Notes: generated by a model not told the origin, from the sequence alone. 32,000 nucleotides of DNA from an uncultured archaeon (GCA_964354495.1 CAYHAA010000010.1:78016-110015), one strand, 5' to 3'. Counted from the stretch's first letter, positions 1,173-32,000 are shown. Program-made: numbers and translations.

Positions 1173-1697
1173 TCACACAATGAGAACCAGGAGTTCCGTC
1201 GGTGTCACCATGGTCCCCACCTTGACATTCACTTCCTTCACGGTGCCGGAGGTATCTGCCTTCAGTTCATTGAACATCTTCATCGCTTCAAGTATGCAGA
1301 CTGTCTGACCGCTCTTGACAGTGTCACCCACTTTCACACGGACTTCAGTAATCTTGCCAGGCATGGGGGGATAGATGCCACCAGCCACTCTTGGGCCTGC
1401 CTGGGAGGTGCCAGGAGCCTTTTTCTCAGCTTCTTGCTTTCTGACACGTTCCCACTCAATCTCTCGTTCCTGGCCATTTATCTCAAGACTCATGGTCTTC
1501 CCTGTTCGTTTCACGATTCTCACGGGATAGTCAGTGGTGGTATCATTTACAATCCATGAACCATCATCAGCAAGAGTCGGTTTCATTGTGAAACTCTGGT
1601 CAGCAACCTTCACAACAAGCAAGCCGCCCTCATCGAGCATCTTAACTTCAACAACGAAAGGCTTCTCATTGAGAGTGACCCTGTATTCCGGACTCAT
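1173..1697 (-). CDS. Biotin carboxyl carrier protein (biotinyl-domain subunit)
   Basis: C-terminal biotinyl domain with EAMKM motif (PMPGKI...VKVGDTV...ILEAMKMFNEL). The start overlaps the stop of the upstream carboxyltransferase. Confidence 0.95.
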   Translation of the reverse strand: MSPEYRVTLNEKPFVVEVKMLDEGGLLVVKVADQSFTMKPTLADDGSWIVNDTTTDYPVRIVKRTGKTMSLEINGQEREIEWERVRKQEAEKKAPGTSQAGPRVAGGIYPPMPGKITEVRVKVGDTVKSGQTVCILEAMKMFNELKADTSGTVKEVNVKVGTMVTPTELLVLIV

Positions 1698-3283: not shown

Positions 3284-3311
3284 CTCTAACCAGCATAGCG
3301 CATGTTAGATA

Positions 3312-3785: not shown

Positions 3786-4373
3786 TTAGGCTCTTCGGCG
3801 GTATATTATATAAAGTACTGGTAGAATCACAGCCACAATGGTCACCGAGATTATGATTGAGATTTGAAGCGGAATGTCGGCTGTGGTGTTTGTTGAGCCC
3901 TGCCTGCAGAATGATATTCGATGCAAGCTGGATGTATTCCAGTTGTTGAGGCTATCATTTGCATAGAACATGATATCCCAGATAACTAAAGAGTTTGCTC
4001 CAATAATCGTGAAATTCAGAGGCCAAGCTACAAAGTCGTCTGGATCACTTGTAAAAGCATCTCGACTCATAGAAACATTGTTCCAGTTGCTACTCGAATT
4101 GTTATTGTAACTTCCAATAACATTACTCACTCCATCGGGGTCTGTTACTCCAACTCTGAGTTCAAGGGTCAAGGTCACAGGTTCGGTGCTAGGAACAAGA
4201 TCCATGAACACCCATGGAGTGAGTTTGAACGAAGGACCTGAAGACTGACATACCTGAAACGAGGATGACAGAGATGACTGATTGCTCACAGCTGCCCCTC
4301 CTGCATTTGGCATCAGTGATGTCAGTGCAACTAGAATCAAAACAGCGTATCTAAAAGTCATTATCATCTTCAT
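3786..4373 (-). CDS. Secreted/membrane-anchored surface protein (signal peptide, Ig-like domain, C-terminal TM helix)
   Basis: N-terminal hydrophobic signal, VTDPDGVSNV...Y...WNNVSM beta-rich segment, C-terminal TM helix followed by YRRRA. Confidence 0.7.
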   Translation of the reverse strand: MKMIMTFRYAVLILVALTSLMPNAGGAAVSNQSSLSSSFQVCQSSGPSFKLTPWVFMDLVPSTEPVTLTLELRVGVTDPDGVSNVIGSYNNNSSSNWNNVSMSRDAFTSDPDDFVAWPLNFTIIGANSLVIWDIMFYANDSLNNWNTSSLHRISFCRQGSTNTTADIPLQISIIISVTIVAVILPVLYIIYRRRA

Positions 4374-4461
4374 GTTTCTCCCTTAATGTACGTCCTAAGC
4401 TATCTCTACACCTTTCATTATCATTTCTATATACGAGTTCTTTTTTCTTGCCTCCAATTTG

Positions 4462-6102
4462 TCACCAATAGCTCCGAGCATATGCCAAATACTGGTCCCA
4501 ACTGCTACAATGATAATAATGATATGAGAGGTCACGCTCCGATCCATATATATCAGGTACGCCACCTGAACTTTCGGCCATTCCTTCAACATGACCATAC
4601 TCATGCATTAAAATCCATTGTCTATAATTCTGAAGATAATACGAGGCTTCATCGCCTATTGCAAATCCAAAGCCCCATATTCCAAATCCCCAAATGTTGC
4701 TAGGATCTATGTAATGAGCAAATAAACCATATACCCATCTGGTCTGTCCGATATGATTGAAATACATATCGCGATAGTTGGATTCGTACTCGTCCCCGTT
4801 AATGTCATATTCAAAAGGAACGCTCGAACTCTGAACAAATGTCACTCTTCTGTAGTCATGGACTATCCAATATGCTTGGAGATAATCAAAGATAGAAACA
4901 GGTTGCTGATGATTATAGCTGGTTCCTCCATGAACTCCAACCATCCAATCAACTTCGACGTTCCTATAATAGTAATTGATCCACCAGTGCGTCAAAGCCT
5001 TTGGATTCGTCCCGTAATTGCCATAGTACAGAACAAACTTGATTTCATGCATACCAGGTGTTGAATAACTTGGCAATTGAATATGATAGGTACCAGGAGC
5101 AGTAAGTGTGCTGTGAAGCTGACCGTCTACATAGACGTATAAGTATCTGTAAAACGGATCATGAACATTGACGCATTGTATGTCTAGGTATGTGCTAGGA
5201 CCCATCGGTGTGCGGTATCTGAGTTCCGAATAGAGCGCGTTTTGAAAGTTCTCTTCTGTCGTATCATAAGGTTGACCCGAAGAATCAAAGAGGTGGTAAT
5301 ATCTGAGCTGCCATCCTTTATCGGATATACCTCCATTGTAGATTTCAAGTGTTATTGTCAACCATCCAGTGTAGATTAATGATATATCACCTTCCCAGTA
5401 GGGTTGTGTGCTATAGATTACTGTATTTAGTATCTGAACATATCCCACATACACCCGAAAGTATCTAGAGTAGGTATCTAGATCTCTCTCCACTCTTATG
5501 TGTGCCTTCATCCCGGACTGAATATATGCTTGATATGAGATCCTTGCATATGTGGACTTTGGAAACCAGTGCCCCTCCATTGCAGGAGTCACAGGTACTG
5601 CGCGCGTATTTCTATCATGAGGACCGAATTCCGAGCCCCAAGTATGTCCAGTGAAGTAACCACTGACAAGTGGAGTTGACTCTTTTTCTGATTCTATTAT
5701 TATTTCTTGAGATACATTCATTGCTTCAGGTATACAATCAGCGGAAACAAATGGAGGCATTTGATTAATTCTCTCAATCTCTGGAGAGATTGAAGCATTC
5801 ATCATTTGAACTTCCTCAAGTGTTGGGATTTTTGTTCCGAAATCCGTTTCTAGATAATTCAGGGTCGTAGGATCTCTCTCAGAGGTAGTTACCATATTGT
5901 TCCAAGGGATATCTGCATTCTGCGTAGTCATGGGACTTTCGGAAAACGCAGCTATTGCCAAAGCTCCCGGAATCTGATTGATAGTGCATACTAGCACCAC
6001 AATCACAACAATCCTGATTGCAGAAAGAAAACGATCCTTTTTGAAACTCCATTTACCAGTCTTGAAATTCATACCACATACTTCCTCAATCAATCGTTCC
6101 AT
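4462..6102 (-). CDS. Secreted zinc metallopeptidase-like protein with two repeated beta-rich domains
   Basis: N-terminal hydrophobic segment and HEYGH zincin motif near the C-terminus (4591-4605). Likely start ATG 6072. Visibly AT-rich. Confidence 0.7.
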   Translation of the reverse strand: MERLIEEVCGMNFKTGKWSFKKDRFLSAIRIVVIVVLVCTINQIPGALAIAAFSESPMTTQNADIPWNNMVTTSERDPTTLNYLETDFGTKIPTLEEVQMMNASISPEIERINQMPPFVSADCIPEAMNVSQEIIIESEKESTPLVSGYFTGHTWGSEFGPHDRNTRAVPVTPAMEGHWFPKSTYARISYQAYIQSGMKAHIRVERDLDTYSRYFRVYVGYVQILNTVIYSTQPYWEGDISLIYTGWLTITLEIYNGGISDKGWQLRYYHLFDSSGQPYDTTEENFQNALYSELRYRTPMGPSTYLDIQCVNVHDPFYRYLYVYVDGQLHSTLTAPGTYHIQLPSYSTPGMHEIKFVLYYGNYGTNPKALTHWWINYYYRNVEVDWMVGVHGGTSYNHQQPVSIFDYLQAYWIVHDYRRVTFVQSSSVPFEYDINGDEYESNYRDMYFNHIGQTRWVYGLFAHYIDPSNIWGFGIWGFGFAIGDEASYYLQNYRQWILMHEYGHVEGMAESSGGVPDIYGSERDLSYHYYHCSSWDQYLAYARSYW

Positions 6103-6201: not shown

Positions 6202-6466
6202 CAACGATATTAGACCCTCTCAGGAGCATCTAGAACTTGGTCCTTGGCATTGCATCCTTGAGCAGCTCCACGCGCTCCCAAGGGTCTTCATCCAAGAAAC
6301 GCATCATACTGTCAAAGGTCGCACCGCCCCACATCTCAAGGGAATGGTACCCAACATTGTCAATCTTCTCGCATATGGGTAGCATGTCTTCAGTTCGCAT
6401 TCGTGTGGCAATGAGAGACTGATGTGCGTCTCGCAATGTTGTATCGGTAATCAGAAGCTTTGCCAT
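6202..6466 (-). pseudogene. Diverged 5' fragment (about 88 codons) of the 5S carboxyltransferase gene
   Basis: Over codons 3-79 there are 44 differences in 231 nt against 1697..3283 (about 81% identity), with only 6 amino-acid changes. One is CAG->TAG at 6230-6232. Homology continues past this stop (MLLRGSNIV) and ends abruptly at about 6202. Confidence 0.95.
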
Positions 6467-6494
6467 TGCTGACCAAATCAGTAGGTAGTTGATG

Positions 6495-17514: not shown

Positions 17515-17638
17515 GAGCGGAGTATTCTCATGCTTCATTGGAGGTCTACTCCGCTCTTGCTGGCAAGCATTTCGAGCCCCTTGCAGATGAGCGCACGAGT
17601 CTCTCGTGCCAAGATAATCTTGTCAGTGTAGCCGAGTC
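17515..17638 (-). pseudogene. pccB/12S 3' fragment, copy F (frameshifted, stop lost)
   Basis: Minus strand reads [26 protein letters not shown], then after a 1-nt shift RSRPPMKHENTPL. Compare [40 protein letters not shown] in copy D. Confidence 0.9.
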
Positions 17639-18894
17639 TGACCGCTCCTTATTCTGTGGAAGAACCTCTCAGTGATACGCCTACCACGTGTTGTTGAGAA
17701 ACGTCGGTCCAGTTCTTCAATGAACGACTCTAGTGCGTCTGCAAGATCACTCAGATCGTCTGGGGTCATACTCTCTTCGAGAATGCACCGAACGTGCATC
17801 CTATCTGTGAGCGTGACTCTATATACTCGCGGATGCCATTTTGCCAGACTCCGGCGAATTGTTTCAAAGGCCTCTTTCATACTCTTATTACCGATAATCC
17901 GGGCGCCCTCAAGAACCTGAGATGAGAGAATGGACTCGTCGTGTAGTACTCGTCGTTGCTCCGATGAGATTCTCTGAATGACGCCTCTATTGAACAGCGT
18001 GCCCAGTTCGTCCAGAAGCACCTCAAGGTCTTGGGCAGGTAAGCCCTCTGTCAATTGAGACACAGACGTACGACCATCAAAGCGCCCGGCCACACACAGA
18101 CTAACGTTAGACAGTCCCAGAGGATTGTTTTTCTGGAATAAGATCGCTGATGATTTCTGAGAGAGAATAAGTATCTCATCATCAGGAGGAACATACTTCA
18201 GAAAGACAGCATCATGCCAGTAGGCTTGAGAAACAATGTCAATCGTTTGCTCCATATCGATACCCAGGAAGTCGGCTACTTCCTTGACAGTCCGTGTTTC
18301 ATCAAGCCCTAGCAGAATCTTTGACACTGAAAATGATGTGCTTGGCAAGTCGAACACAAAGGGCGAGTCTCTCGTCTCAGGTCTCCTCGATACAAGAGTC
18401 CTGCCTGTTACCTGATCGTTCACGAAGGCCCTCCTAACAAATCGGTCAAAATCACCAAACGCGCTGCCTTCAATACCATCTGAGTCTCTGAGGACTGCGA
18501 AGCAGTCTTCAAACTCTCTGACAACATTCCTCAATCTGGTACGACTCACAGTCGTTTCTCTTGATACAAGAAGGACTCCGATGGCCCATGCTCCATGTTC
18601 TACAAGAAGCATTGACTCTGCACCGTATTCTGTCTTCCAGCTCGTCTGTTGCCCGCCCATCACAACACCCATGAAGGTGGCCATTGCGGAGATGAAACCC
18701 GATATGATCTGGGGGTCCAGGCTGCTCTTGCTGAATTCATGAGAATAAGGAGCCAGGCCACTAATCTTGTTCAGAATCATAATCAGTTTCTCGTTAGCGG
18801 CGAAACAGTCATAGGAAATGTCTGGGGCTGTCACATTGAGAGACTCTTTCGGTGTCTTCGAGAGTCTCTCACTGAGGTCATCGGTCAATCTCAT
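17623..18894 (-). CDS. Longin-like N-terminal domain plus winged-helix-like domains (Asgard-type protein); start uncertain (18894 or 18780)
   Basis: ILNKISGLAPYSHEF...DPQIISGFISAMATFM resembles the Asgard longin pattern (SGL.L(Y/F)...D..LISGF.SA...F). TVKEVADFLGI and FDGRTSVSQL are helix-turn-helix-like segments. Confidence 0.65.
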   Translation of the reverse strand: MRLTDDLSERLSKTPKESLNVTAPDISYDCFAANEKLIMILNKISGLAPYSHEFSKSSLDPQIISGFISAMATFMGVVMGGQQTSWKTEYGAESMLLVEHGAWAIGVLLVSRETTVSRTRLRNVVREFEDCFAVLRDSDGIEGSAFGDFDRFVRRAFVNDQVTGRTLVSRRPETRDSPFVFDLPSTSFSVSKILLGLDETRTVKEVADFLGIDMEQTIDIVSQAYWHDAVFLKYVPPDDEILILSQKSSAILFQKNNPLGLSNVSLCVAGRFDGRTSVSQLTEGLPAQDLEVLLDELGTLFNRGVIQRISSEQRRVLHDESILSSQVLEGARIIGNKSMKEAFETIRRSLAKWHPRVYRVTLTDRMHVRCILEESMTPDDLSDLADALESFIEELDRRFSTTRGRRITERFFHRIRSGQTRLH

Positions 18895-19951
18895 CCCTTC
18901 CTTCTGCGCCTTGCACAATGGTTCTCTTGCACCAAATGTGCTTGTATATCTCTTTGAAACCATACTTCTCATAGAGAGAAATCGCAGCAGTGTTAGAGCT
19001 TTGAACAACAAGTTCAGAGGACGTATGTCCTTTCATGTATGCTCGGTTGAGAATCTCGGACAACAGTGCGCGAGCATACCCTCTTCTTCGATACTCTGGC
19101 GAGACGCCCATCCCCTCGATCTTGAGGATTCTCTCTTTGGTCGAAGACTCCACCGAAAAGCCCAGGCAGTATCCGACGGGCCTAGAAAAGTATGAACAAA
19201 CCACTACTAGGTTTGGGTCAAAGGTGCAGTGCGTGACAATAGAAGCAAGAGTTTCTGTGCTGACGGGCTCATAGCCAGGGAAGTTTCCGAATATCCTATT
19301 CTGGAGCTGTGCCCACACCACGGATTCCCTCTTGACATTGAGCGGTCGCACAATCAATCCCGGCGGAGCTGGTCTGGATATGGCAGGATACTTGAGCTCA
19401 ACACGCATTTTCAACCACATATATTCATGGTGAAAGCCATGTTCTTCCAGAAAAGACGCAACATATGGACGGAAACTTGGGAACCTGCATACAAACTCAG
19501 AAGAGCCTCGCTTCAGCCCGACCTGTATTAGGCTGTTCAGAACTTTGGAGCCAATACCTTGACACCTGTACTGGGGATGGACTTGAACCATCAACCTTGA
19601 AGTCAGCGAGGGACTATTCTCCGTAAAGATTGTCCCTGCCGCTATCAGATTTCCTGCAGAATTCCGTACCAGAAGAAAGTCCTCAGACAGATCAACATTG
19701 GGAGATGAGAAAGAGGACTGAAAGTACTCAGCCGGGAGTTGAATATGGTCAGGGTCATCAAACGACCCCACTGTATTATGCAGGGCTGCGTAGTCTTCCA
19801 TCATTTTCTCATCTCCAGGCGCTAGTGCAAGAGTTTCTACGTTACACACTGTTACAGCCCACCGTCTGAATTCCCTCTGAAACGCGACCTGTGAAGGAAT
19901 CCCACACACGTCGTTTCCTAATCTGCTTGTGATGGAGTATGATAGATCCAA
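18878..19951 (-). CDS. Tandem GNAT N-acetyltransferase (MshD-like); true start probably about 19800-19860
   Basis: Two acetyl-CoA motifs: VHPQYRCQGIGSKVL and GVSPEYRRRGYARALL, plus NTAAISLYEKYGF. Confidence 0.9.
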   Translation of the reverse strand: MDLSYSITSRLGNDVCGIPSQVAFQREFRRWAVTVCNVETLALAPGDEKMMEDYAALHNTVGSFDDPDHIQLPAEYFQSSFSSPNVDLSEDFLLVRNSAGNLIAAGTIFTENSPSLTSRLMVQVHPQYRCQGIGSKVLNSLIQVGLKRGSSEFVCRFPSFRPYVASFLEEHGFHHEYMWLKMRVELKYPAISRPAPPGLIVRPLNVKRESVVWAQLQNRIFGNFPGYEPVSTETLASIVTHCTFDPNLVVVCSYFSRPVGYCLGFSVESSTKERILKIEGMGVSPEYRRRGYARALLSEILNRAYMKGHTSSELVVQSSNTAAISLYEKYGFKEIYKHIWCKRTIVQGAEGRDEIDR

Positions 19952-20540
19952 GTTCTGTTATGTGAACCTGTTTCGTCCCCGCAACTCGGTTTCTTTCGAT
20001 ATAACCTGCAAGCTCCAGATCACGAATGTGTCTGGAAATACCAGATTGCCGGATTCCAGTGTTTCGTGAGATCTCCTTCTGTGCAATCGGGCAGCCAGAA
20101 TTCTCAAGATGGTCAAGGATCTCGCGTTTCTTATGCGTGAGATGGACCAGCTCAGATGGCCAGACTTCAGATATCTGAAGTGGCCCGGTTTGTGTTGTGC
20201 AGAGGATTGATGCTCTTACAATCGCCGCAGCTACACAAGCAGCCAGAGTCATCATACAATGTTCTGATGCTATGCTGAACTCAATTTGATACGCATCAAT
20301 TCTGCGATGGTTCAAGGCGGACAATATCAGTGAAAGAATGTTATGGAAATCGTCCGGCACAATGCGGACTAATTCAACAACGATTCCAAGATTCGAAAAA
20401 TGCGCAAATACCTTATCAGCAAGCTCTGTTTCTTCTTCGGCATATACAATAATCAGCTCATCAATACTCCGCCTGATTGCGAGCTGCTCCAATGACTCTT
20501 GCTTCCCTAGTAATGCAACATGTATCTTTTGCTTCGTCAT
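19842..20540 (-). CDS. CARF-like (Csa3/DUF6293-type) domain plus winged-HTH transcriptional regulator
   Basis: Rossmann-like N-terminus (IHVALLG, DELIIVY, VELVRIVPDDF, FSIASEHCMMTLAAC) then LTHKKREIL...QKEISRNTGIRQSGISRHIRDLELAGYIER. Likely start ATG 20540. Confidence 0.7.
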   Translation of the reverse strand: MTKQKIHVALLGKQESLEQLAIRRSIDELIIVYAEEETELADKVFAHFSNLGIVVELVRIVPDDFHNILSLILSALNHRRIDAYQIEFSIASEHCMMTLAACVAAAIVRASILCTTQTGPLQISEVWPSELVHLTHKKREILDHLENSGCPIAQKEISRNTGIRQSGISRHIRDLELAGYIERNRVAGTKQVHITELGSIILHHKQIRKRRVWDSFTGRVSEGIQTVGCNSV

Positions 20541-20906
20541 ATGCTTCAAACTCCGGGTGCACATCATGATCTCATGATTTTTCAGCATCCTAGATTGCTT
20601 TCGCTTTCCGCGATTACTTGGATGCCATCGGGTGCCAAGGCATTTAGAATGGGAGTTTGAATTCTCCACATTCCTGAAGGTTTCCCCCCTCCCCGGATGT
20701 TCTTCGTTTCAGGAACCCTCGCATCAAACGGTCCTTGGTCCCCAGACATATCGTGTTTTCTTACCATATAAGCACTCGATGATGCCCCAAGACTGAACTA
20801 TTCTGAGGAATAAGACGAGTTTCACAGGAGAGATGCCTGAGAATTGGTAGCATATATTGACGATTTTCGTAATATCAAAGAACGCCGCTACCTGAATTCG
20901 ATGTCG

Positions 20907-22622
20907 TTAGTGCCGTCGAGATATCGCGCGGTTGCGTGAGGCGGAGGGTGCTTTGACTGTCAGACTCTCACTTTCCTCTACAACTCTCTCCAGCCACACT
21001 GCGATTTCATCTTTTGGAGCCTGCCAGCACTGATTCTCGACATCCCACAGATTATAGGGTAACTGCCAATGACCCCAGATTCCGCTACTGAGGGGTGATA
21101 CCGTGACAGGCCATCCAAGGGTACGAAGTGTGTCCATAAGCTGTGTAGAGCCTCCTGCAGGAAGATCAGTCATCATGAGTAGATTCCGATTCTCTTCATA
21201 GCGTAAGAAGGCTCGCGGCAGCTCTCTGGCCCAGGTATCGAGAATATCGGCAGTATTTCTATCACTTGCCTGTATTGCTACTCGCTCAACCAGACCTATG
21301 TTCTGGACACTCCAGATATGATGAATCAGACCCTCTGCCCTAAGTCGTTTGATGCGAGTTGAGAGTTTGGTCTGCCCGACTGAAAGCCTCTTTCTCAACG
21401 CTCTTGAAGAAGTGATTCCGTCCTGCACTAATGCAAGGATTTCCATATCAAGAGAATCAAGGTATACATCTGTGGTCTTTGCAGGTAGGTCAATGCGATC
21501 AATAAGATGATGAAGCGACTCCTCTGTTATTCTGTGGCCCCAACCTCTCATCGCAACCCAAGGAATCTCCCACCTATGGTTTTTCGCATTATAGTGGTAG
21601 AATGAGTTCGATACGCCAACTGAATAGGTCTCCGCAACATCAGCAGCTACACCATTGTCATTGAGTGTTGATGACATCTGGTCTAAGGACCGAGTACTTT
21701 CAGGACTGTCCGGGACGGCGAGACGTGCAATTATCTGCCAAGGACCATTAAGGATTGAACGCATTTCGTAAACGAAGGGACACTCATCAAGGATTTTTGA
21801 AGGCTCACTCCAAGAGGGACCAGCCAGCAAGACATGAAATGTGCGTATCCCAATTCTGGAGAAGGGAGTGGTCGTGATGTCCATCAGCATATGCTTTTGT
21901 TTGAGACGATTGATCCGTGTACATACCCAGGACTCACTCAATCCAGCAACCTCAGCGACTCGACGGTAAGTGGCCGTTTCATTTTTCAGTAGGACATCCA
22001 CAATCTTTACGTCAGCCTTGCCAAGTTCGACAACAATATTCTGAGTTCTGAGAAGCATGTAATCGACGTACTCATTGAAGTCTAGCGATATGCCATATCG
22101 AGCCATACTCACAAATTCGTGCACCAGGGAGTCCAATTCACCCAGACCACCAAGGGCAATAATCCACTCCATCATTGTATAGGAAGTATAGAGCAGGTTG
22201 ACACGGACCCTTTCTGTCGGAATCCTTTGCCACTCTCTTACCCATTCGATTCTCTCAGGTCTCTTCAGCATTTGTCGAGCGAACTCTGAGGAAAGGTCTC
22301 GTTTTGCCTCAAAGCAGAGCTCAGGGGGCAAAGAGTGGAAGAAACATTCACTATATACAATGCCGGCGATCGGAATCGTTTCATGCAATGCTTCGGAATG
22401 GACCTGAAGCTCGTTTTTGGCGGGGTCATAGTGTCCACCCATTTGTGAGATGTCATGTGCTTCGATGACCTGAACTGACTTAGGCACAGGAGGTGTCTTG
22501 AGCCCAAAACGTTGAGCTATTATTCCCGAACAGTCAAGCCACAACGCCGCAATCTGAGATTGAGTGTCAGTCATCAAGTTTGTTGAATGATATTCCAACT
22601 TAAGGACTTCTTGTTCGAACAA
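20907..22622 (-). CDS. Large regulator-like protein with two Lrp/AsnC-type HTH + RAM-like repeats
   Basis: DVKIVDVL...TYRRVAEVAGLSESWVCTRINRL and DSLDMEIL...SRALRKRLSVGQTKLSTRIKRLRAEGLI. Confidence 0.75.
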   Translation of the reverse strand: MFEQEVLKLEYHSTNLMTDTQSQIAALWLDCSGIIAQRFGLKTPPVPKSVQVIEAHDISQMGGHYDPAKNELQVHSEALHETIPIAGIVYSECFFHSLPPELCFEAKRDLSSEFARQMLKRPERIEWVREWQRIPTERVRVNLLYTSYTMMEWIIALGGLGELDSLVHEFVSMARYGISLDFNEYVDYMLLRTQNIVVELGKADVKIVDVLLKNETATYRRVAEVAGLSESWVCTRINRLKQKHMLMDITTTPFSRIGIRTFHVLLAGPSWSEPSKILDECPFVYEMRSILNGPWQIIARLAVPDSPESTRSLDQMSSTLNDNGVAADVAETYSVGVSNSFYHYNAKNHRWEIPWVAMRGWGHRITEESLHHLIDRIDLPAKTTDVYLDSLDMEILALVQDGITSSRALRKRLSVGQTKLSTRIKRLRAEGLIHHIWSVQNIGLVERVAIQASDRNTADILDTWARELPRAFLRYEENRNLLMMTDLPAGGSTQLMDTLRTLGWPVTVSPLSSGIWGHWQLPYNLWDVENQCWQAPKDEIAVWLERVVEESESLTVKAPSASRNRAISRRH

Positions 22623-23257
22623 ATCGCAGTTCAGGAGAAACAGATTAGTGTCACTGACGTGAGAGTTGCGTTCCAGAAAGCAAGTTTCGTTTCAGAATAT
22701 CAGTTATCTCGTCTGGCTTTGAATAGTCTATTACCCTAGTACAATCGATTACTATGAACGATCCTCCAAAGAATCCCCCAGAACCATGGTAGTGCAAACC
22801 ATAGATTACCGGGCGAGAAGGCAGCGCGTGAGTTGTACTACGCCAGACCCTTGAAGTCGCTCCTGCTCCTCGTTGTAGCGAGAACGGCCCTCAAGACTGC
22901 TGTCTTAGTAGCGGACCTGTTCATTTATGCTGAGCTGAGCGTGGCTATCACGAGATGAGTCCAGGTAGCCTTCTCGCGCCGGACCCATCTCCGTTCCACT
23001 TACTCGTACAATTGTCAATACTGCTTCCCGTGACCATAAGATTCTCACGAGATCAGTGGCTAAATGAAGAGGGTGGCGACCACACAGGAATCGTGGTAGG
23101 AGGGGGGAGTTTCGTAATTGAGGGCATGTAACGAAAACTAGCCTGTGTGCTCGCCATGGAATTGATTGAAATCTCCTACTCAATATCCAGTCTGCACAAT
23201 TCCTAATAAAGGACTATCGTATGTGCACAGTCTATTCCAGTCCTCTAATCTCGACAA

Positions 23258-23345
23258 TCACAGCGGAATATTCCCATGCTTCTTCGGAGGCCTACTCTTT
23301 CTCTTACCGGCAGGCATATCTAAGCCCCAGCAGATCAAGAGTCTC
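23258..23345 (-). pseudogene. pccB/12S 3' fragment, copy E (strongly degenerate)
   Basis: [26 protein letters not shown]. Weaker in-register similarity extends to about 23395 (IAANVTHFDRV versus [11 protein letters not shown]). Confidence 0.9.
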
Positions 23346-23436
23346 CTATATCGTAGGAGTGTCACTCTGTCAAAGTGCGTTACATTCGCCGCGATACACT
23401 CCACGTCCTCCGACAACTGAGGATATGCTCGCTGAA

Positions 23437-24249
23437 TCAGTCCCAAGTCCACCTGATTTCTCGCCCTGCTGCCAGATTCTCAAGGCTCAATGGTAGTAGT
23501 GGAATCAAGAGTGCGCTTGGCAATCCAAACATGAGGACTGCCGGCAATCGTCTTATGACTAACTCCTCCACTGGATAGTATTGCCAGGCTTCGCTAGCCA
23601 TGATGCCCGCGATGAGTGGATCTAGAAACGCGGATATGAGAATGCCCATAGACACGAAAACGAGCCAGAGCTGATGCTGTCGGCAACACCTCTTCATGAA
23701 TCGAAGTGGATTAGCCGAGTGTATCGCTCCAGCAGTGACCAGGTATGCGTAGACTGCTAGCCACAACACGACACCAGCAGCGATAGCAGACATCACTGTG
23801 AATGAATCGAAGAAGTACCGCACCGACCATGCAACAGGAACGAGAAGAACAAGTGCCAGCAGTATCAGAACAACTGCCACTAGAAGGGGATTTCTCTCAA
23901 CGGCAATTGTTCCCAGATGACCTCTCACCTTCTTCATATTGGCAAACATGACTGCCATCAGTGGCACCACAACAAGAAACAGAACAAGAAGTCCGTATTC
24001 AGGATCCGTAGCGTACAGCCAGTTTATGTCTGCACTAGTGACCAACTGCAGAATCGTGATAGAGACTGCGAGAGAGATCCAGTATGCTATGGCGAAGAGC
24101 ACATGGATCTTCACATACCGATTGATGCTTACCGACATCCCGCTTTGCGGCGGTGAGTCGACCACTGGTGCTTCTCGTGATTCGGGAGCGCTCGATGTCG
24201 TTTCCCCAGCCTCGCGGAGCCCTCTTCGAGCTGAAAGAGAGCAAGTCAA
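23437..24249 (-). CDS. Polytopic membrane protein of unknown function
   Basis: About 6-7 hydrophobic helices; the start may be the internal ATG (MSVSINRY). Confidence 0.7.
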   Translation of the reverse strand: MTCSLSARRGLREAGETTSSAPESREAPVVDSPPQSGMSVSINRYVKIHVLFAIAYWISLAVSITILQLVTSADINWLYATDPEYGLLVLFLVVVPLMAVMFANMKKVRGHLGTIAVERNPLLVAVVLILLALVLLVPVAWSVRYFFDSFTVMSAIAAGVVLWLAVYAYLVTAGAIHSANPLRFMKRCCRQHQLWLVFVSMGILISAFLDPLIAGIMASEAWQYYPVEELVIRRLPAVLMFGLPSALLIPLLPLSLENLAAGREIRWTWD

Positions 24250-24369
24250 TTCAAAATGTACTAGGTCGACTTCCTAGATAAGCCTGACGAGCCAACTTCT
24301 TCGGGAGCTGCAAATGTTTCGGTTATGCAACAGGGAGCGATCCAGCCAAATCGTAGGAAGTATACGGGC

Positions 24370-25375
24370 CTAGAGGGGTATGTTCCCATGCTTCTTGGGC
24401 GGTCGCGATTTCCTCTTGCTTGCCAGCATCTCAAGACCGCTGCATATGACCGGTCGGGTTTCATGCGGGAAGATGACCCTGTCAATGTAGCCAAGTCCTG
24501 CAGCAACGTAAGGATTGGCAACCTTGTCCCTGTGCTCCTTCACAAACTCGGCTCGCTTCTTCTTCTTGTCCTTTTCAACCTCAATCTCCTTGCGGAAGAT
24601 GATGTTGGTCGCACCATCTGGGTCCATGACAGCTATCTCAGCTGTGGGCCATGCGTATACGAGATCCGCTCCGATACGCCGCGAGGACATGACATCGAAC
24701 GCACCCCCATAGCCCTTTCTCGTGATGATGATGATAAGAGGAACTGTCGCCTCTGCAAAGGCGTAGAGGATCTTCGCTCCGTGGCGAATGATGCCGCCCC
24801 ACTCCTGAGCGGTTCCAGGGAGGTAGCCAGGGAGGTCCATGAAGGTGATGATTGGAATGTTGAAGGCATCGCAAAAGCGGACGAAACAGGCGCACTTGTC
24901 TGAGGCATTGATGTCGAGAGTGCCTGCGAGATGGGCGGGATTGTTCCCAACAATCCCCACTGAACGGCCATCGAACCTGGCAAAACCAACGACCATGTTC
25001 TTCGCCCAGTGCTCATGGACCTCAAAGAACTCGCCATTATCGACAAGTTTTCGCACGACATCGCGCATGTCATATGGTTTGTTAGGACCGTCTGGGATTA
25101 GGTCGTCGATTGATTCATCAACACTATCAGGGGCGTGACCAGTATCAACTCTCGGTGGTTCCTCGAGATTGTTCTGAGGTATGTAACTGAGGAGTATCTT
25201 GGTCTGCTCAAAACAATGATCCTCATCCTCGCCAGCGAATTGTGCGACACCGCTCACTGAGTTGTGGGTCATTGCACCCCCCAGCTCCTCGAAGGTCACC
25301 TCTTCCCCTGTGACAGTCTTGATGGCATCGCGGCCTGTGATGAACATAATGTTTGTACTCTTAACTATGAATGCG
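24370..25375 (-). pseudogene. pccB/12S carboxyltransferase 3' fragment, copy D (about 1 kb; N-terminal ~35% missing)
   Basis: MFITGRDAIKTVTGEEVTFEELGG...[20 protein letters not shown]...[11 protein letters not shown]...HGNIPL*. Substitutions at normally conserved positions (TGP->TGR, MGP->MDP, Y->H, F->V). Upstream sequence is the AbiE promoter, not pccB. Confidence 0.93.
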
Positions 25376-25422
25376 AGATTAGTTCTTTTCTTATTGATGG
25401 CGGCATTGAATGTACACATTGC

Positions 25423-25459
25423 GTTACATTAATATGGCTTAAAACATAATTATTGCAAC
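25423..25459 (+). promoter_or_regulatory. Imperfect inverted repeat bracketing a TATA-like box; candidate AbiEi operator
   Basis: GTTACATTAATATG (25423-25436), GCTTAAAA, CATAATTATTGCAAC (25445-25459; reverse complement GTTGCAATAATTATG). TTAAAA lies about 30 nt upstream of ATG 25474. Confidence 0.55.
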
Positions 25460-25473
25460 AGAGTGTGTATATT

Positions 25474-26325
25474 ATGGTTTCAAAGACTGAGCAGATCTAT
25501 CTTCAGATGCTTGACAAAGGAATCGTTACTTTGGAAGATGTGGACCAAATTGCACATGAAGTCCTTCGTCGCAGAGTCACTCGCGCATACCTTGAGAGTG
25601 AATTCTTAACCCGTCTTCGTAGCGAGGGCAAGGTTCATTCCATCCGTCGTGGGCTATATCACGTTGTTCTCCCATCCGGTGATACTGACACACCAGATCT
25701 ATTTCTCGTTGCCTGCAGAGTTCAACCCACTAGCTTCTTGGGATTCCATACTGCATTGGAATTCTATGGTGTTGCTCACTCAGCGTATTACAATGAAATC
25801 TACATCTGTGGACCTGCAAAAAAACGATTCAGACCCTTCACGGTTCACGGTGTCAAGATTAGACCAGTTGTTCTACAAGATAACGAATCAGGTATCAACA
25901 ATCTTCAATATAATGAGGAGAGAATCAGAGTTAGTTCCTTAGAGCGTACCTTAATTGATTGTATTGAAAGACCAGAATACTGTGGCGGATGGGAAGAAAC
26001 ACTGAACAGCCTGATGAAGGTTGGAAATCTAGATTTCAGAGTAATTCGGCAACTGCTTCTCAAACGAAAAAATCAGTTCCTTTTGCAACAGGTAGGAATT
26101 GTTCTAGACATTTTACGAGAAGCCTCACCACTAATCAGAGAGAGCATCAGTGATCAACAATTGCTTGGATTGACTAAGTATGTCAAGGGATCTGCGAGAT
26201 ACTTCTTTCAAAATAAAACCAATACACCATACTACAGAGGAAAGAAGGCCCTCCGGTATAATAGACATTGGAGAATGTACGTCCCGGTCTGGCTTACAAC
26301 TATTCTAGGGGAAGGGCTTGTTTGA
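25474..26325 (+). CDS. abiEi: Type IV TA antitoxin, AbiEi family
   Basis: N-terminal wHTH (IRRGLY), SFLGFHTALEFYG, RVSSLERTLIDCIERPEYCGG. The stop overlaps the next gene. Confidence 0.9.
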   Translation: MVSKTEQIYLQMLDKGIVTLEDVDQIAHEVLRRRVTRAYLESEFLTRLRSEGKVHSIRRGLYHVVLPSGDTDTPDLFLVACRVQPTSFLGFHTALEFYGVAHSAYYNEIYICGPAKKRFRPFTVHGVKIRPVVLQDNESGINNLQYNEERIRVSSLERTLIDCIERPEYCGGWEETLNSLMKVGNLDFRVIRQLLLKRKNQFLLQQVGIVLDILREASPLIRESISDQQLLGLTKYVKGSARYFFQNKTNTPYYRGKKALRYNRHWRMYVPVWLTTILGEGLV

Positions 26326-27284
26326 GGACACGAAATACACCCTCTCCCAATCTTCAGTTCGACCACAAATACCTTCAACGCATGGAGATCCTCTTGAAGA
26401 TTCTCGAAGAATTCTATAAGAATCAGATTCTCAGAGATCATCTATCCTTAATTGGTGGAGCAGCATTTCACTTAGTGCACTCGAAAACATATCCACCTCC
26501 TCGTTTAACAATGGACGCAGATTTCAATTTTCGAGATGTGAGCACACTAGACAATTTACATATGCTGGAGATCTCCAGGAAGAAAATAGATACTGAGATC
26601 AAGAAGATACTGTTGTCGATGGGAGCCGAGGAGAGTGACATAAAGATAGATGCTAAATATCCGCTCAGTAGATTTATTGTTAGTCTTCATGACAGGGATA
26701 ACAAACCAGTAAGTGTTCTTATAGAGATTGGATATACCAAGAGAATCTCGTTATTGGGAGACTCATGTTTGCCACTTTCTAAGACTTCTGTTCAAGTCAC
26801 AACTCCTGTTGCTGAAGAGCTTCATGCTGGTAAGCTTGCCGCACTTTTCTCACGTGCAACTCCAAAAGATATGTTTGACGTTTGGCTTATTTCACAAGCG
26901 GCTGACTTGGATTTCGTCAAATTCAAGAAATGCTTCATAGTAGAGTCTCTGGCGTCTCTTGATCTCCCTCTCTTCGAGATTAATCTCCTCGACCTACTAG
27001 ATTCAATTCCGTTCGACTCAGGCCTCCAGAACCTTCTCCCCAGAAATGTGTATAGTAAAGAGCAACTCAAATCAATCAGAGAAGAAGTCAAAGATTTCAT
27101 CATGAAGCTCATCACTCATCTCACAGAAGATGAGAAGGAAGGAATAATCAAGTTCTATAGTAGTCTTATCTTCGACCGCAACCTCATTGACCCTTCGAAA
27201 ATACTTCATGAGCGGGTCAGTGAATATCCTGCATTGACATGGAACCTTGAAAAGATGCGGCGAGAACGAGGAAACTCAGAATAA
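26322..27284 (+). CDS. abiEii: Type IV TA toxin, AbiEii-family nucleotidyltransferase
   Basis: LIGGAAFHL, PRLTMDADFN and GKLAALFSRATPKDMFD motifs. Likely TTG start overlapping the abiEi stop. AT-rich. Confidence 0.9.
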   Translation: MRTRNTPSPNLQFDHKYLQRMEILLKILEEFYKNQILRDHLSLIGGAAFHLVHSKTYPPPRLTMDADFNFRDVSTLDNLHMLEISRKKIDTEIKKILLSMGAEESDIKIDAKYPLSRFIVSLHDRDNKPVSVLIEIGYTKRISLLGDSCLPLSKTSVQVTTPVAEELHAGKLAALFSRATPKDMFDVWLISQAADLDFVKFKKCFIVESLASLDLPLFEINLLDLLDSIPFDSGLQNLLPRNVYSKEQLKSIREEVKDFIMKLITHLTEDEKEGIIKFYSSLIFDRNLIDPSKILHERVSEYPALTWNLEKMRRERGNSE

Positions 27285-27397
27285 CTTGTAGAAGAACTGG
27301 GAATACTGAGATACTCTGGTAGCAAGAACTACGTTCAACTCTTATTGAATAAGATGACTCCTGACTAGCACATTCGGGAAATCGAAGCTCGAAATAG

Positions 27398-27655
27398 CTA
27401 GAGGGGAATATTCCCGTGCTTCTTGGGGGGTCGCGATTTCCTCTTGCTTGCCAGCATCTCGAGACCGCTGCATATGAGTGGACGAGTTTCTCGTGGGAAG
27501 ATGGCCTTATCGATGTATCCCAGTCCAGCTGCAACATACGGATTCGCGAACTTGTCCCTATATTCCTTCACAAGCTCTGCTCGCTTCTTCTTCTTGTCCT
27601 TCTCAGCCTCGATTTCCTTCCTGAAGATGATAATGACTGAAGCATTGATGTCGAG
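27398..27655 (-). pseudogene. pccB/12S 3' fragment, copy C (with internal deletion)
   Basis: [77 protein letters not shown]. It is preceded directly by a 19-nt piece (27637-27655) from the LDINAS codons, about 300 nt further upstream in the gene. Confidence 0.93.
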
Positions 27656-27828
27656 TTCTCATTTCAGAATTCAAACCAATATTCCTCCTTGGAAACGAGT
27701 GTCCGGTTAAAATAGCCGTATTCTAGTGAATCAAACAGGCAAAGAGTATGATCTTTCCATCCATCCTCATGAATCTCCATCCACCTTACATTATTAACAA
27801 GAAGCTCAGTCTTGAACCATACTCAAGA

Positions 27829-28398
27829 CTAAACGGTTATTCTCCATTTCGCGGCTCGTCTTCGTTTGACATCTGAATCGGCGTACATTGGTAGAAGCAT
27901 CCACCTCTTCATGTCCGTCATCGTAAACAGTACTCGTGGAATAACCATGCCTAGCCCAAAGCCATAGAATACGGCTGAAGTATAATAGTATGGTAGACCG
28001 ATATCTATCAGACTGAGCAGCAGAGCCAGAGTTACAACAATAAAAACGAATGGTATGCCAAGAACCACCATTAGACGCTGGGGGGATATCAGTACGAATC
28101 CCTCGTTTCTGATGTCATCTCTGACCTGACTCAGCATATGCCAAGAAACCACGAAACCTATAGGAACCAAGAATAGAAACAATGCCGCTGCTTGAGTACC
28201 AGTCAGTATAAAATCCCACAGTGTGCCTGATGGTACTTGATTGAAGTAGGAGAGGACGATTGCAGAACTCAGGATGGACAAGAGAGAATCCACCCAGATG
28301 GACCCTGTAAATCCGATATTGCGTATCAATGGCTTTGATACATCTTCAGAAGGGGTAAGTTTGTCATTAGCCATGTTGATCACCATCTCTCTAGTCAT
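27829..28398 (-). CDS. Membrane protein (about 4 TM), possibly the partner of the upstream secreted protein
   Basis: Four hydrophobic helices; starts 7 nt after the stop of 28406..29293. Confidence 0.7.
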   Translation of the reverse strand: MTREMVINMANDKLTPSEDVSKPLIRNIGFTGSIWVDSLLSILSSAIVLSYFNQVPSGTLWDFILTGTQAAALFLFLVPIGFVVSWHMLSQVRDDIRNEGFVLISPQRLMVVLGIPFVFIVVTLALLLSLIDIGLPYYYTSAVFYGFGLGMVIPRVLFTMTDMKRWMLLPMYADSDVKRRRAAKWRITV

Positions 28399-28405
28399 TA
28401 TCTAT

Positions 28406-29293
28406 CTATAGGGACCCTGACGTATCGTACGCGTAGTACCAGATGTCTCTCCATAGTCCATGCGACATCTGAATCCATCCATTTGTACCTAAGTAGGAGT
28501 AGGACCACGCGTCACCCTGTTCAGTCTTCCAGACTAACTCCACCCATAAGACAACCAATGCCGCCCATACCGCAATGAATACGAGTGTCACAGCGAGGAT
28601 TTTTATAGCAAGTGCAGTTATTGTGATGCCAAGAATGCCGTATAGACTTATCAAGGCACGAGCTATCGTCGAAATACCAGCCCAGAGACTTGCAGAAACT
28701 TGAGTCTGGTATACAACATATTCGGATACATGAATTATCGAATATCGTCCAATCTTTTGGGACCAGTCTAGATTCCATTGTTCTGGGTGGTATGTATAGT
28801 AGTTGTCAGGATGATCATACTTGACAGGCTGTTTTGAACTACCAGGAACAGACACGAATTTGAAGGAATTCCAGTAGTATGTCGTGAATGTCCCCCAGTC
28901 GGTGGCAGTTGCAAAGGATTGCTCTGGTTCCTCGGGAGCAGCTGCAGTATCCGATATCCTCGCGACCTTCGTTGATTGTACTGTGATCTGCCGAGAGATC
29001 TCTCGGTCGAGATCATCCAACACAATCAAGGTCTGTTGAAACTCGACGAAGATATAATCCTCTCTTTCCTCTGCATTCCCAGACACAATTAGCCTCATCC
29101 GAACTCCATCATGTTCGAAGGTCTCCTCTGCAACAAAAGGCCCCAATTTGGGTTTCATCGCCTTGATTCGTTCTGATGCAGTCATGAACTCCTCATATGT
29201 CGATGCAGCAGTACTGCTAGGTATGGGCGCTACGAATGCAAAAACCATCAAAAGTAAAACAAGTGAAACAATGACTCGTTTTACAGACATCAT
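28406..29293 (-). CDS. Secreted protein with a long C-terminal hydrophobic hairpin
   Basis: Signal peptide MMSVKRVIVSLVLLLMVFAFVAP...AA and hydrophobic stretch SLWAGISTIARALISLYGILGITITALAIKILAVTLVFIAVWAALVVLWVELVW. Confidence 0.7.
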   Translation of the reverse strand: MMSVKRVIVSLVLLLMVFAFVAPIPSSTAASTYEEFMTASERIKAMKPKLGPFVAEETFEHDGVRMRLIVSGNAEEREDYIFVEFQQTLIVLDDLDREISRQITVQSTKVARISDTAAAPEEPEQSFATATDWGTFTTYYWNSFKFVSVPGSSKQPVKYDHPDNYYTYHPEQWNLDWSQKIGRYSIIHVSEYVVYQTQVSASLWAGISTIARALISLYGILGITITALAIKILAVTLVFIAVWAALVVLWVELVWKTEQGDAWSYSYLGTNGWIQMSHGLWRDIWYYAYDTSGSL

Positions 29294-29956
29294 ATTCGTT
29301 CCGAAAACTCCTCTCTATGATGTCATCTGTTACATCTGTTATTAAGGGCTAGTGAATTCCTCAAAGCGTCATTCTAAGCCCTAATGAGATGTTAGACACG
29401 GAGTGCTTCTTCAAATTCCTAATTGAGTACAAAGATGTATAACGTAGGTAATACGAAACACCCCTTCTGCTTAACAAATGGCCATATCATTTCAACAGAC
29501 TACTCATCGCAAGTTGAGGGGATTGAAAGGTATGATAGTAGTCTGTGACCCTTTCGACATGGAAATGTGTTGCAGAATAAGATTCCAAATTAAGGGAACT
29601 GGAAGGGGGATGAAATGGGTTTCCCCTTCTAGCACATTCACCGTTACCTGAAACAATGGGCATGACCCCTCCCGTCCTCTGTGGACAGCAGTGGAAAGGT
29701 ATGATTGTAACACGCCTTCATCACTGATGTTTCTCGCTGTTCAATATATAGGATAGCACGTCGTGGCCAAATGACTGTAGAATGACCCCAGAACCCGCTT
29801 TGTCAGACCATCCGAATTCCACGGGTCGGATACGAGTATGGGTCTTTAATAGAGCATCCTGAAACAGAGGGCCGTCATACTCCATGGAACACTAACGGAG
29901 AAACGAACGTGTTAGTAGTTGAACTCGGATTCTCGGTCGATATGAAGATGCCAGAC

Positions 29957-30331
29957 TCACGGAGGAATGTCCCCATGCTTCTTCGGAGGGCGCGATTTCC
30001 TCTTGCTTGCCAGCATCTCCAGACCACTGCATATCAACGGTCTGGTCTCATGCGGGAAGATGACTCTGTCAACGTAGCCGAGCCCAGCCGAAACATAGGG
30101 ATTCGCAAACTTCTCGCGGTACTCCTTCACAAGCTCTGCACGCTTCTTCTTCTTATCCTTGGCTTCCTCGATCTCTTTTCTGAAGATGATGTTGATGGCT
30201 CCATCGGGGCCCATTACTGCAATCTCAGCTGTCGGCCAGGCATAGACAAGGTCAGCATCGATATGTCTGGACGACATGACATCGTAGGCGCCTCCATAGC
30301 CTTTCCTTGTGATAATCGTAATCTTTGGTAC
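29957..30331 (-). pseudogene. pccB/12S 3' fragment, copy B
   Basis: [44 protein letters not shown]...[15 protein letters not shown]. Homology starts abruptly at about 30331. Confidence 0.93.
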
Positions 30332-30447
30332 TCGTAAACCTGAGGCATGTTAGGATTGTGGCATGAATACTAGAAGGTAATAGATCTAGATTCCTAAATT
30401 GTTGTAGAATGATGTACAGCTTTATATCAATCGGATTCTATAGTACG

Positions 30448-30666
30448 GTGAGGCTGAAAAAAGTGACCATTAAGACGATTCCAGTGTCAGAGGAGGTCTA
30501 CAAACTACTTGAGAGATTAAGACTTCCTGGAGAGCGATATGATGACACGATTCTTCGTTTGGCTGGAATCAAGGCGAGAGGGAAAGACTTTGATAAGACC
30601 TTCAAAGAAGCACTTGATGCAGTTGTGAAAGAGGATGCGGAACTCCTTGAGAGACTGGCACACTAG
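30448..30666 (+). CDS. Putative antitoxin, archaeal RHH-like VapB-type family
   Basis: KTIPVSEEVYKLLERLRLPGERYDDTILRL pattern. TTTATAT box at 30421-30427; directly upstream of a Doc toxin. Start uncertain (GTG 30448 or 30463). Confidence 0.75.
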   Translation: MRLKKVTIKTIPVSEEVYKLLERLRLPGERYDDTILRLAGIKARGKDFDKTFKEALDAVVKEDAELLERLAH

Positions 30667-30691
30667 AGTGTGACCTCTGGAGTCGTGTGTA

Positions 30692-31075
30692 TTGAGATAC
30701 CTCACGTTCGATGAGATTCTACAGATTCACAGAAGAATGATACAGGTCTTTGGTGGTGAAGAGGGTATTCTCTCAGAAGAGGCTCTTGAAAATTGTGTTG
30801 CACTACCAATGATGTCTGTCTTTGGAACAGAAACAAGTAAATCATTATGGTCAAAGACAGCAACGCTTTTACATTGTATAGCTAACAGGCATCCCTTCGT
30901 TGATGGGAATAAGAGAACTGCTTGGACTGCCGCCAAGGTTTTCTTGCTATTGAATGGATTTCGATTGAGTGCATCTCTAGAAGATGGCGAGCGTACAGTT
31001 CTGGATGTCGTTAAAGGATCCATCAATCTGGAGAGCCTTGCATATTGGATTGAGACTCATTCTGAACCGGTATAG
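30692..31075 (+). CDS. doc: Death-on-curing (Doc/Fic) family toxin
   Basis: HPFVDGNKRTA Doc-type Fic motif and YLTFDEILQIHRRMI...GG..GI N-terminus. Confidence 0.92.
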   Translation: MRYLTFDEILQIHRRMIQVFGGEEGILSEEALENCVALPMMSVFGTETSKSLWSKTATLLHCIANRHPFVDGNKRTAWTAAKVFLLLNGFRLSASLEDGERTVLDVVKGSINLESLAYWIETHSEPV

Positions 31076-31100
31076 AGTATGAGTGTGAGGTTTTTCATAT

Positions 31101-31292
31101 TTGGAACAAATCAAGGCCGCACTTGCTCAACTGGGATTCGAGCTGAAGACTAGTGAACTCTTAGCCTCAGGTGTAAAGATGACCGAGGAGCCAAAGCAAG
31201 ACATCGAGTGGATTGTGGAGAACAGTGGCAGATCGTGGAGCGAGATTAGGAATGACTATCCCACACAATCCTTTTCTGAAGTTTCGTGGTAA
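31101..31292 (+). CDS. Short hypothetical ORF or gene remnant
   Basis: 63 aa protein-like frame with TTG start, converging on copy A; no motif recognised. Confidence 0.3.
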   Translation: MEQIKAALAQLGFELKTSELLASGVKMTEEPKQDIEWIVENSGRSWSEIRNDYPTQSFSEVSW

Positions 31293-31386
31293 CATAGAGA
31301 GATGAGGGCACGGGGGCTATTGTAATCAATCTGAAGTATTTCACTAGCTCTCACCATATAAAATGAGAGCCCAATAATGCAAGAGG

Positions 31387-32000
31387 CTACAGAGGTATAT
31401 TCCCATGCTTCTCTGGCGGTCGTGTCTTCCTCTTGCTTGCCAGCATATCCAGTCCACTGCAGATCAACTTACGGGTCTCATGGGGAAAGATGACCTTGTC
31501 AATGTACCCAAGTCCTGCCGCCACATACGGATTAGCAAACTTCTCACGATACTCCTTCACCAATTCCGCTCGTTTCTTCTCCTTGTCCTTTGCCGCCTCA
31601 ATCTCCTTTCTGAAAATGATGTTGATTGCGCCATCCGGACCCATGACAGCGATTTCGGCAGTGGGCCAGGCGTAGACGAGGTCCGCTCCGATATGCCGCA
31701 AGGACATGACGTCGAATGCGCCGCCGTAGCCCTTTCTCGTGATGATGGTGACAAGAGGAACCGTCGCCTCTGCAAAGGCGTAGAGGATCTTCGCTCCGTG
31801 GCGGATGATACCTCCCCACTCTTGCGCAGTTCCTGGGAGGTAGCCGGGCACGTTCCTGAAGGTGATGATTGGTATGTTGAAGGCATCGCAGAATCGTACG
31901 GAGCGAGCACACTTGTCAGAGGCATTGATGTCGAGCGTGCCTGCAAGATGGGCGGGGTTGTTTCCGACTATTCCCACTGAACGACCGTCGAAGCGGGCAA
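31387..32000 (-). CDS. pccB: Acyl-CoA carboxyltransferase (PccB / transcarboxylase 12S) 3' portion, copy A; intact gene or another fragment cannot be decided within the window
   Basis: Frame open to the window edge: [15 protein letters not shown]...PGYLPG...GGIIRHGAK...HGNIPL*. It carries unusual residues (CARSV for xARFV, FRNVPG for FxDVPG). Confidence 0.85.

Follow-up and report, generated by a model that had tools for sequence, protein, structure and literature searches.

Arrangement of the pccB fragments

The stretch of DNA considered here ("the window," 32,000 nt; G000:C10:78016–110015) belongs to G000, the genome of a Thorarchaeota (Asgard) archaeon recovered as a 51-contig metagenome bin that is 97.7% complete; it runs up to the very end of contig C10. 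It contains six 5′-truncated copies of the 3′ part of pccB, a housekeeping carboxyltransferase gene, all on the minus strand, all reaching the last bases of the gene, and separated by genes unrelated to it, referred to below as cargo. The array appears to record repeated insertions of DNA from related lineages behind pccB. Fragments were detected with BLAST and with a nucleotide hidden Markov model (HMM, 1560 positions) built from 14 intact pccB genes of the genus, and the six same-strand copies described in an earlier note, made from the sequence alone, were recovered in this way. That note had every copy ending in HGNIPL; all do extend to the end of the gene, but one (B) ends in HGDIPP and another (F) is frameshifted.

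Fragment A (window positions 31391–32000; HMM start 440) runs off the end of the contig and continues at C4:56–~564. The last 55 bases of C10 are the first 55 of contig C4, a match that is unique in the genome. Joined over this overlap, A is 1,119 nt long rather than at least 614 bp as first described, with a frame of 370 amino acids (aa) that stays open and unbroken across the join; it is 78.6% identical to the intact gene at the nucleotide level and 90.3% at the amino acid level. Fragment B (29962–30332; 371 nt, HMM start 1188), with the terminal codons HGDIPP*, is open over 123 codons and closer to the intact copy, at 85% nucleotide and 95% amino acid identity. Fragment C (27402–27640; 239 nt, HMM start 1321) has 82 open codons, and just before its head is a 16-nt remnant of pccB positions ~1012–1030, so it has undergone an internal deletion in which about 290 nt were lost. 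A contig from a relative carries a joint at the same two places in pccB. Fragment D (24374–25382; 1,009 nt, HMM start 551) is open over 348 codons, the first 25 or so degenerate. Fragment E (23262–23376 by the HMM, with start 1445, and to 23395 by tblastn; ~115–135 nt) is decayed, with 60% amino acid identity. Fragment F (17516–17646; 131 nt, HMM start 1428, nhmmer E=3.6e-22) is the oldest copy.

A seventh copy, an intact pccB of 521 aa, lies at C4:5123–6688 behind four further cargo genes, in the flanking sequence where the earlier note had suggested looking for one. Comparison of the copies also bears out that the sequences following their stop codons are unrelated to each other. No tRNA or Rfam family was found in the window. 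Short contigs from one soil sequencing run, 98–100% identical to G000, bridge the head of B and both junctions of E; this run may be the source sample of the genome.

Divergence, selection and decay

Among the intact copy and fragments A–D, pairwise DNA identity on a codon alignment is 76–84%, slightly below the 79–89% previously counted by hand, although the picture of diverged alleles is the same. Nonsynonymous divergence (dN) is 0.03–0.10, synonymous divergence (dS) is at least 0.9 (mostly above 1 or saturated), and dN/dS is 0.02–0.10. A duplicate that had drifted neutrally over half of this divergence is expected to show a pairwise dN/dS near 0.5 and many stop codons. Given the low ratios, the high dS and the open frames, the copies are therefore not decaying local duplicates; until recently they belonged to working genes. 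The farther a copy lies from the intact gene, the more it has decayed: A and B are undamaged, C carries its deletion, the head of D is degenerate, E has a dN of 0.33, and F is frameshifted.

Foreign origin of the alleles

That the copies are alleles of other lineages, as the earlier note proposed, is supported by these ratios and also by phylogeny, through approximately unbiased (AU) tests in the congeners G015 and G022. The resident pccB of G015 groups with that of G024, and its 1-kb fragment belongs to the second of the two deepest clades in the genus tree, a split with 100/100 support. A tree placing fragment and resident gene in one clade is rejected for G015 (p=4e-53) and G022 (p=0.004), and also for G004 (p=0.04).

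Crossover points

The G015 fragment is a mosaic. Over codons 187–471 almost every informative site agrees with the donor clade, and at the last five (codons 475–494) the fragment is resident-like, which puts the crossover about 140 nt before the stop codon. A second crossover is seen when fragment E is compared between G000 and G012: identity is ~52% upstream and then ~93% from exactly 34 nt before the stop, and it stays high through the adjoining block between E and F (86% over 4.8 kb). The genes adjoining pccB are just 70–72% identical between the two species. The breakpoint, together with this lower identity of the neighbors, indicates that the last 34 nt of pccB and the downstream genes were exchanged after the species split; the exchanged block would then have one of its ends inside the pccB tail. 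Truncation points spread over more than 1,000 nt, and these two crossovers at different places in the tail, fit the claim that there is no fixed crossover point, though the conserved last ~35 nt may still serve as a core. A sliding-window nearest-neighbor analysis of A and D did find changes of neighbor along the fragments, but at 80–88% identity it was too noisy to place crossovers in G000.

Distribution in the genus

Extra pccB tails, counted if downstream of an intact pccB or on the same short contig, were found in about ten species besides G000 among 28 species genomes of the genus, with one to three tails each (G004, G005, G011, G012, G014, G015, G019, G022, G042 and probably G006). More distant Asgard genomes have a single pccB copy per locus, without extra tail fragments. 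When metagenomes were scanned for sequences close to the pccB tail, the matches listed were generic pccB at 74% identity or less, with no useful loci among them. A related population in ENA (L140–L146) carries an intact gene and, behind it, fragments whose heads are at HMM positions 437, 1314, 1376 and 1435, together with an internal remnant, and this array was recovered in seven assemblies at 99.8–99.99% identity. On one further contig of the population, a HicA cassette is followed by different genes, for an FAD-dependent reductase-like protein and VIT1; the switch starts near the position of a pccB tail fragment and is a candidate cassette polymorphism.

Fragment lengths overall range from 64 to 1,119 nt, with many of only 64–135 nt, and across species the heads span HMM positions 428–1496. 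Within this range, and taking the window with loci L040–L057 and L140, heads from different species and with different upstream cargo cluster within about 10 nt (428/437/440, 551/558, 985/993, 1314/1319/1321/1331 and 1376/1383). There are short similarities upstream of the heads of D and of G015 fragment f558, and upstream of those of G011 f428 and ENA f437, but they are not conclusive.

Search for recombinases

Pfam scans of about 60 cargo and flanking open reading frames (ORFs), here and in relatives, found no recombinase or transposase. They did find toxin–antitoxin pairs of the Doc, PIN, MNT/HepT and AbiE types, NosD-like beta-helix proteins, a catalase, a histidine kinase, parts of ABC transporters, and methyltransferases. 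The earlier claim that the window lacks a recombinase can thus be extended to the rest of the array and to the arrays of relatives. At the level of the whole G000 genome there is no match to Phage_integrase (PF00589), even at E≤1, to rve (PF00665) or to Cas1 (PF01867), so there is no recognizable XerA-type recombinase. The sole serine recombinases (PF00239) in G000 are two IS607-type TnpA proteins of 200 aa with an N-terminal MerR-type helix-turn-helix (HTH), on contigs C22 and C24 (L147:1314–1916 and L148:2746–3348); a TnpB-like gene (L148:4319–5833) lies two ORFs from one of them, the IS607 arrangement. In G004, which has an array and is 87% complete, there was no match to a tyrosine or serine recombinase. 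Tyrosine recombinases are present in G015 and G011, on contigs other than those of the arrays. Tn7-like, casposon, integron and tyrosine-integrase readings of the array were rejected because their defining enzymes were not found.

Cargo and neighboring genes

The cargo is varied. Between A and B, on the plus strand, are a VapB-like antitoxin (30409–30666) and a Fic/Doc toxin (30692–31075), and between C and D, also on the plus strand (25453–27284), an AbiEi antitoxin and an AbiEii nucleotidyltransferase toxin. Two other intervals are on the minus strand and encode proteins with no Pfam family: a 295-aa secreted or membrane protein and a 189-aa membrane protein between B and C (27829–29293), and a 270-aa polytopic membrane protein between D and E (23437–24249). 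On contig C4, between A and the intact pccB, are genes for a nucleotidyltransferase, a 383-aa membrane protein, a 148-aa HTH-membrane protein and an S8 subtilase. The interval between E and F (17623–23183, minus strand) encodes a 571-aa protein with two winged HTH (wHTH) domains, a 275-aa MarR-like wHTH protein, a 357-aa GNAT protein, a 462-aa protein, and a 92-aa ORF.

Pfam agrees with the previous assignments of the Doc toxin (with its VapB-like antitoxin), the AbiE pair, and the GNAT and wHTH regulators, but a longin assignment in the E–F interval could not be reproduced. Nor does that interval look like cargo, as had been supposed: the same block is a conserved neighbor of pccB in at least six congeners, and is better read as the old neighborhood than as a recent arrival. 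Its three central genes are inverted in G003, G004 and G005. Relative to pccB, the inverted segments of the GNAT/wHTH/571-aa block are L049:4444–8118 in G003, L041:9796–11431 in G004 and L045:370–2055 in G005, compared with 18878–22622 in the window; a four-gene ABC-transporter block is likewise inverted relative to pccB between G016 (L055:1028–4175) and G008 (L053:3202–6279). No inverted pccB fragments were found at the borders of inverted multi-gene blocks. Downstream synteny is also broken in G000 in that an 81–86-aa wHTH gene, the conserved neighbor that closes the variable region behind pccB in most congeners, is here on another contig (G000:C20:20863–21105).

The Doc toxin–antitoxin pair has a counterpart in G002, 87% identical over 680 nt covering exactly the two ORFs, which sits behind three tail copies of a different gene, encoding a 315-aa protein. 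In that region (G002 L138:2400–8540; C140:~100400–106540), the last ~70–90 nt of the 315-aa ORF (L138:1577–2524) recur twice downstream, each copy ending in a stop codon and with cassettes in between; the third unit begins with the Doc pair. An exact look-up of the Doc protein returned no record.

Directly upstream of the intact pccB is a gene for a 1,268-aa protein (L008:6768–10574, G000:C4, minus strand), with an acidic, low-complexity N-terminal part, weak HTH matches, and a sub-threshold LAGLIDADG_3 match near the C-terminus (E=0.007). G014 has a homolog in the same place next to pccB, and in G012 there is 72%-identical DNA on a different contig. The idea that it is a homing-type nuclease stimulating recombination at pccB was set aside because arrays occur at unrelated anchors elsewhere.

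Other anchors in the same genome

A comparison of G000 with itself gave several further diverged direct repeats at the ends of ORFs, each bracketing a few kb, some at the 3′ ends of genes and others at 5′ ends. These arrays were assessed by repeat structure only. The 3′ end of a 270-aa ORF is present in at least four copies at C10:~5–32 kb, the 5′ end of a 419-aa ORF is repeated on C4, there are two sites on C7, and repeat families are shared by C30 and C31 and by C32 and C17. One case is in the window itself, at a 5S-type carboxyltransferase gene (HMGL-like plus PYC_OADA; 1697–3283, minus strand). Its first 78 codons recur 3.2 kb upstream, at 6230–6466, with 92% amino acid and 79% nucleotide identity; including a few upstream bases, the repeat units are 3019–3292 and 6202–6475. 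Between them (3786–6102) are two ORFs of 41–42% GC without an assigned function. The pattern seen at pccB recurs here with a 5′ gene end. No motif common to the anchors of different arrays was found, and no tRNAs in the anchors.

These observations raise a broader possibility, put forward here only tentatively: that cassettes are captured genome-wide in Thorarchaeota without a dedicated recombinase, with gene ends (3′, 5′ and possibly an rRNA end) as portable homology. Through general recombination, cassettes may then be gained, exchanged and turned around between species.

Proposed mechanism and alternatives

From the structure of the array we infer that DNA of relatives was inserted serially behind pccB, anchored by homology to the gene and displacing its old tail; a rough probability for this reading is 0.6. 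At least six successive insertions would be recorded. Each time, DNA from a related Thorarchaeota would enter, consisting of part of the donor's pccB 3′ region and whatever followed it, would pair with the resident pccB by homology, and would recombine there, its far end being joined without homology. Two routes can be imagined: a single Campbell-type crossover of a circularized fragment, or homology-facilitated illegitimate recombination of a linear one. The mosaic in G015, with a foreign head and a resident tail, fits the crossover of a circle; the uniform fragment A fits the linear route. In either case the working gene would retain an intact, partly foreign tail, and the old tail, now truncated at its 5′ end, would be shifted one step away with the old downstream genes and would begin to decay. 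The enzymes would be those of the host's general recombination and repair machinery rather than an element-encoded integrase, and selection would retain the toxin–antitoxin, abortive-infection and surface-protein cargo.

Several points weigh against serial homology-anchored insertion. The intact copy, A, B and D of G000 form a clade of their own (93/90), in which B is sister to the intact copy (100/95) and A to D (97/98); several unsampled sister lineages must therefore be assumed as donors, more closely related to G000 than the sampled species are. No donor allele for D was found among 5.8 billion proteins, of which the closest is 88% identical at the amino acid level. The sharpest crossover is in the last 34 nt, the most conserved part of the gene, and would also fit an attachment-site core. 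The clustering of fragment heads is not expected for random breaks, though the excess is marginal (P about 0.05–0.1 against a jittered null). The Doc pair is shared with G002 without any flank, so some cargo moves by another route. Sequencing runs yielded no reads that support the complete layout or a circular intermediate; none of the runs had more than 7% of the sampled words, the contigs that matched were mostly from the pccB genes of other organisms, and stretches without coverage count neither way. Finally, measurements in the organisms studied so far show recombination at only ~80% identity to be inefficient.

The strongest competitor, which can be given perhaps one chance in four, is that the modules are integrase-less passengers of a site-specific system. 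A recombinase not recognized as such, or acting in trans and possibly carried by an element outside the assembly, would use a core in the last ~30–40 nt of pccB, and the pccB pieces of various lengths would be parts of attachment sites, much as in tandem accretion at the 3′ ends of tRNA and other genes. The terminal codons ...RPPKKHGNIPL* do persist in even the most decayed copies, as a core would, yet over the terminal 36 nt third codon positions are as variable as is usual for coding sequence, and therefore no constraint at the DNA level is visible. The block shared by G000 and G012 begins 34 nt before the stop, in the right place for such a core, but the G015 crossover is ~140 nt before it. 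Short fragments of 64–135 nt and the weak recurrence of head positions between species would also suit attachment sites; long heads carried untranslated on an element, on the other hand, should not show a dN/dS of 0.05 over 350 codons. As to the enzyme, G015 and G011 have tyrosine recombinases, but none of more than ten arrays contains a recombinase, G000 has no tyrosine recombinase, rve or Cas1, and G004 neither a tyrosine nor a serine recombinase. Moreover, the other arrays are on unrelated anchors, 5′ ends included, with no common motif.

It is quite improbable that the copies are old local duplications of the resident tail, formed by insertion with long target duplication and later maintained as gene-like sequence through gene conversion. 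In bacteria, insertions without mobility genes that duplicate long target stretches of varying length are on record (PMC2853133), and the head of D and that of G015 f558 have some derived letters in common. The earlier note had taken a genome-specific clade with dN/dS near 1 as the mark of simple duplication and decay; the clade is there in G000, but the ratio is 0.02–0.10, with dS mostly above 1 and open frames, where drift predicts ~0.5 and stop codons. Conversion by the resident gene would homogenize the copies, which nevertheless differ by 15–24%, and in G015 and G022 the fragments are in other clades than the resident gene. An assembly artifact chaining the pccB ends of co-occurring strains, for which the 51 contigs of the bin and the contig break inside copy A might speak, can practically be dismissed: the junctions between cargo ends and mid-gene heads have no k-mers in common with anything and so cannot be created by graph mis-joins, the copies are just 76–84% identical, bins of more than ten other species show arrays built in this way, as do seven independently made assemblies of one population, and three junctions are bridged by short contigs of another run.

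Comparison with known systems

The closest parallels to serial homology-anchored insertion at pccB are in bacteria: the displacement of rhs C-terminal ends (Jackson et al., 2009, as cited in PMC5361080), and that of effector–immunity modules of the type VI secretion system (T6SS) in Vibrio cholerae by homology-facilitated illegitimate recombination (Kirchberger et al., 2017, PMC5361080). In these systems too, recombination is anchored by homology in the conserved upstream part of a gene, the 3′ part is exchanged for that of the incoming DNA, and the old 3′ part is shifted downstream with its partner, giving arrays of orphan 3′ pieces; there is no integrase and no fixed integration site. The pccB locus has what defines such a displacement array, namely an intact gene with co-oriented, 5′-truncated pieces, each with its own downstream genes; the pieces are from alleles of other lineages, include mosaics, and show no evident specific integration site. 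The difference is in what is displaced. In the rhs and T6SS cases a variable toxin domain is displaced, with the cognate immunity gene as its cargo; at the present locus a housekeeping carboxyltransferase with a conserved tail provides the anchor, the cargo is unrelated to it, and the host is an Asgard archaeon.

A second parallel is the insertion of restriction-modification units with long target duplication (Furuta, Abe and Kobayashi, 2010, PMC2853133; an earlier report is Nobusato et al., 2000, as cited there). In that process small units without mobility genes are likewise found between long direct repeats (46 to more than 400 bp), some of which overlap the 3′ end of a gene; at pccB, too, the flanking direct repeats exceed 30 bp and no mobility gene is found. 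Those repeats of restriction-modification units are near-identical, however (for example, 417 of 423 positions), whereas here identity is 76–84% with dS mostly above 1, and pccB copies in relatives come from other clades. The survey in PMC2853133 includes no archaeal case. The earlier note knew of no equivalent described in Asgard archaea; with equivalents outside the archaea (PMC5361080, PMC2853133) the arrangement is less unprecedented than that suggested.

If the proposed mechanism is right, gene flow in Asgard archaea would add accessory and defense genes at many housekeeping genes without an enzyme from a mobile element, with homology to relatives diverged by ~20% being sufficient. This would help explain the turnover of flexible gene content in an integrase-poor lineage, and would extend the displacement model, so far one of bacterial polymorphic toxin loci, to ordinary metabolic genes and to archaea. 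The stranded tails would be dated fossils of past alleles, from which the order and the sources of transfers could be reconstructed.

Tandem accretion of integrative elements, and of cis-mobilizable elements lacking an integrase, at the 3′ ends of tRNA and other genes depends on a fixed core and on an integrase of the tyrosine or serine type. It resembles the pccB array in its head-to-tail modules, each with a copy of the target's 3′ end at its border, with the newest beside the intact gene and the target end restored. It differs in that there is no such integrase in this genome, the fragments vary from 64 to 1,119 nt, and the crossovers are at differing positions. Integrons are similar as ordered arrays of small or promoter-less accessory cassettes with additions at one end. 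In G000, however, there is no IntI (no PF00589 in the genome), anchors differ between arrays, and the borders are coding fragments of pccB rather than attC sites, although no dedicated search for attC folds was made. Should capture at gene ends prove to be genome-wide, it would fill the role that integrons and integrase-borne islands have elsewhere, in a lineage largely without such enzymes.

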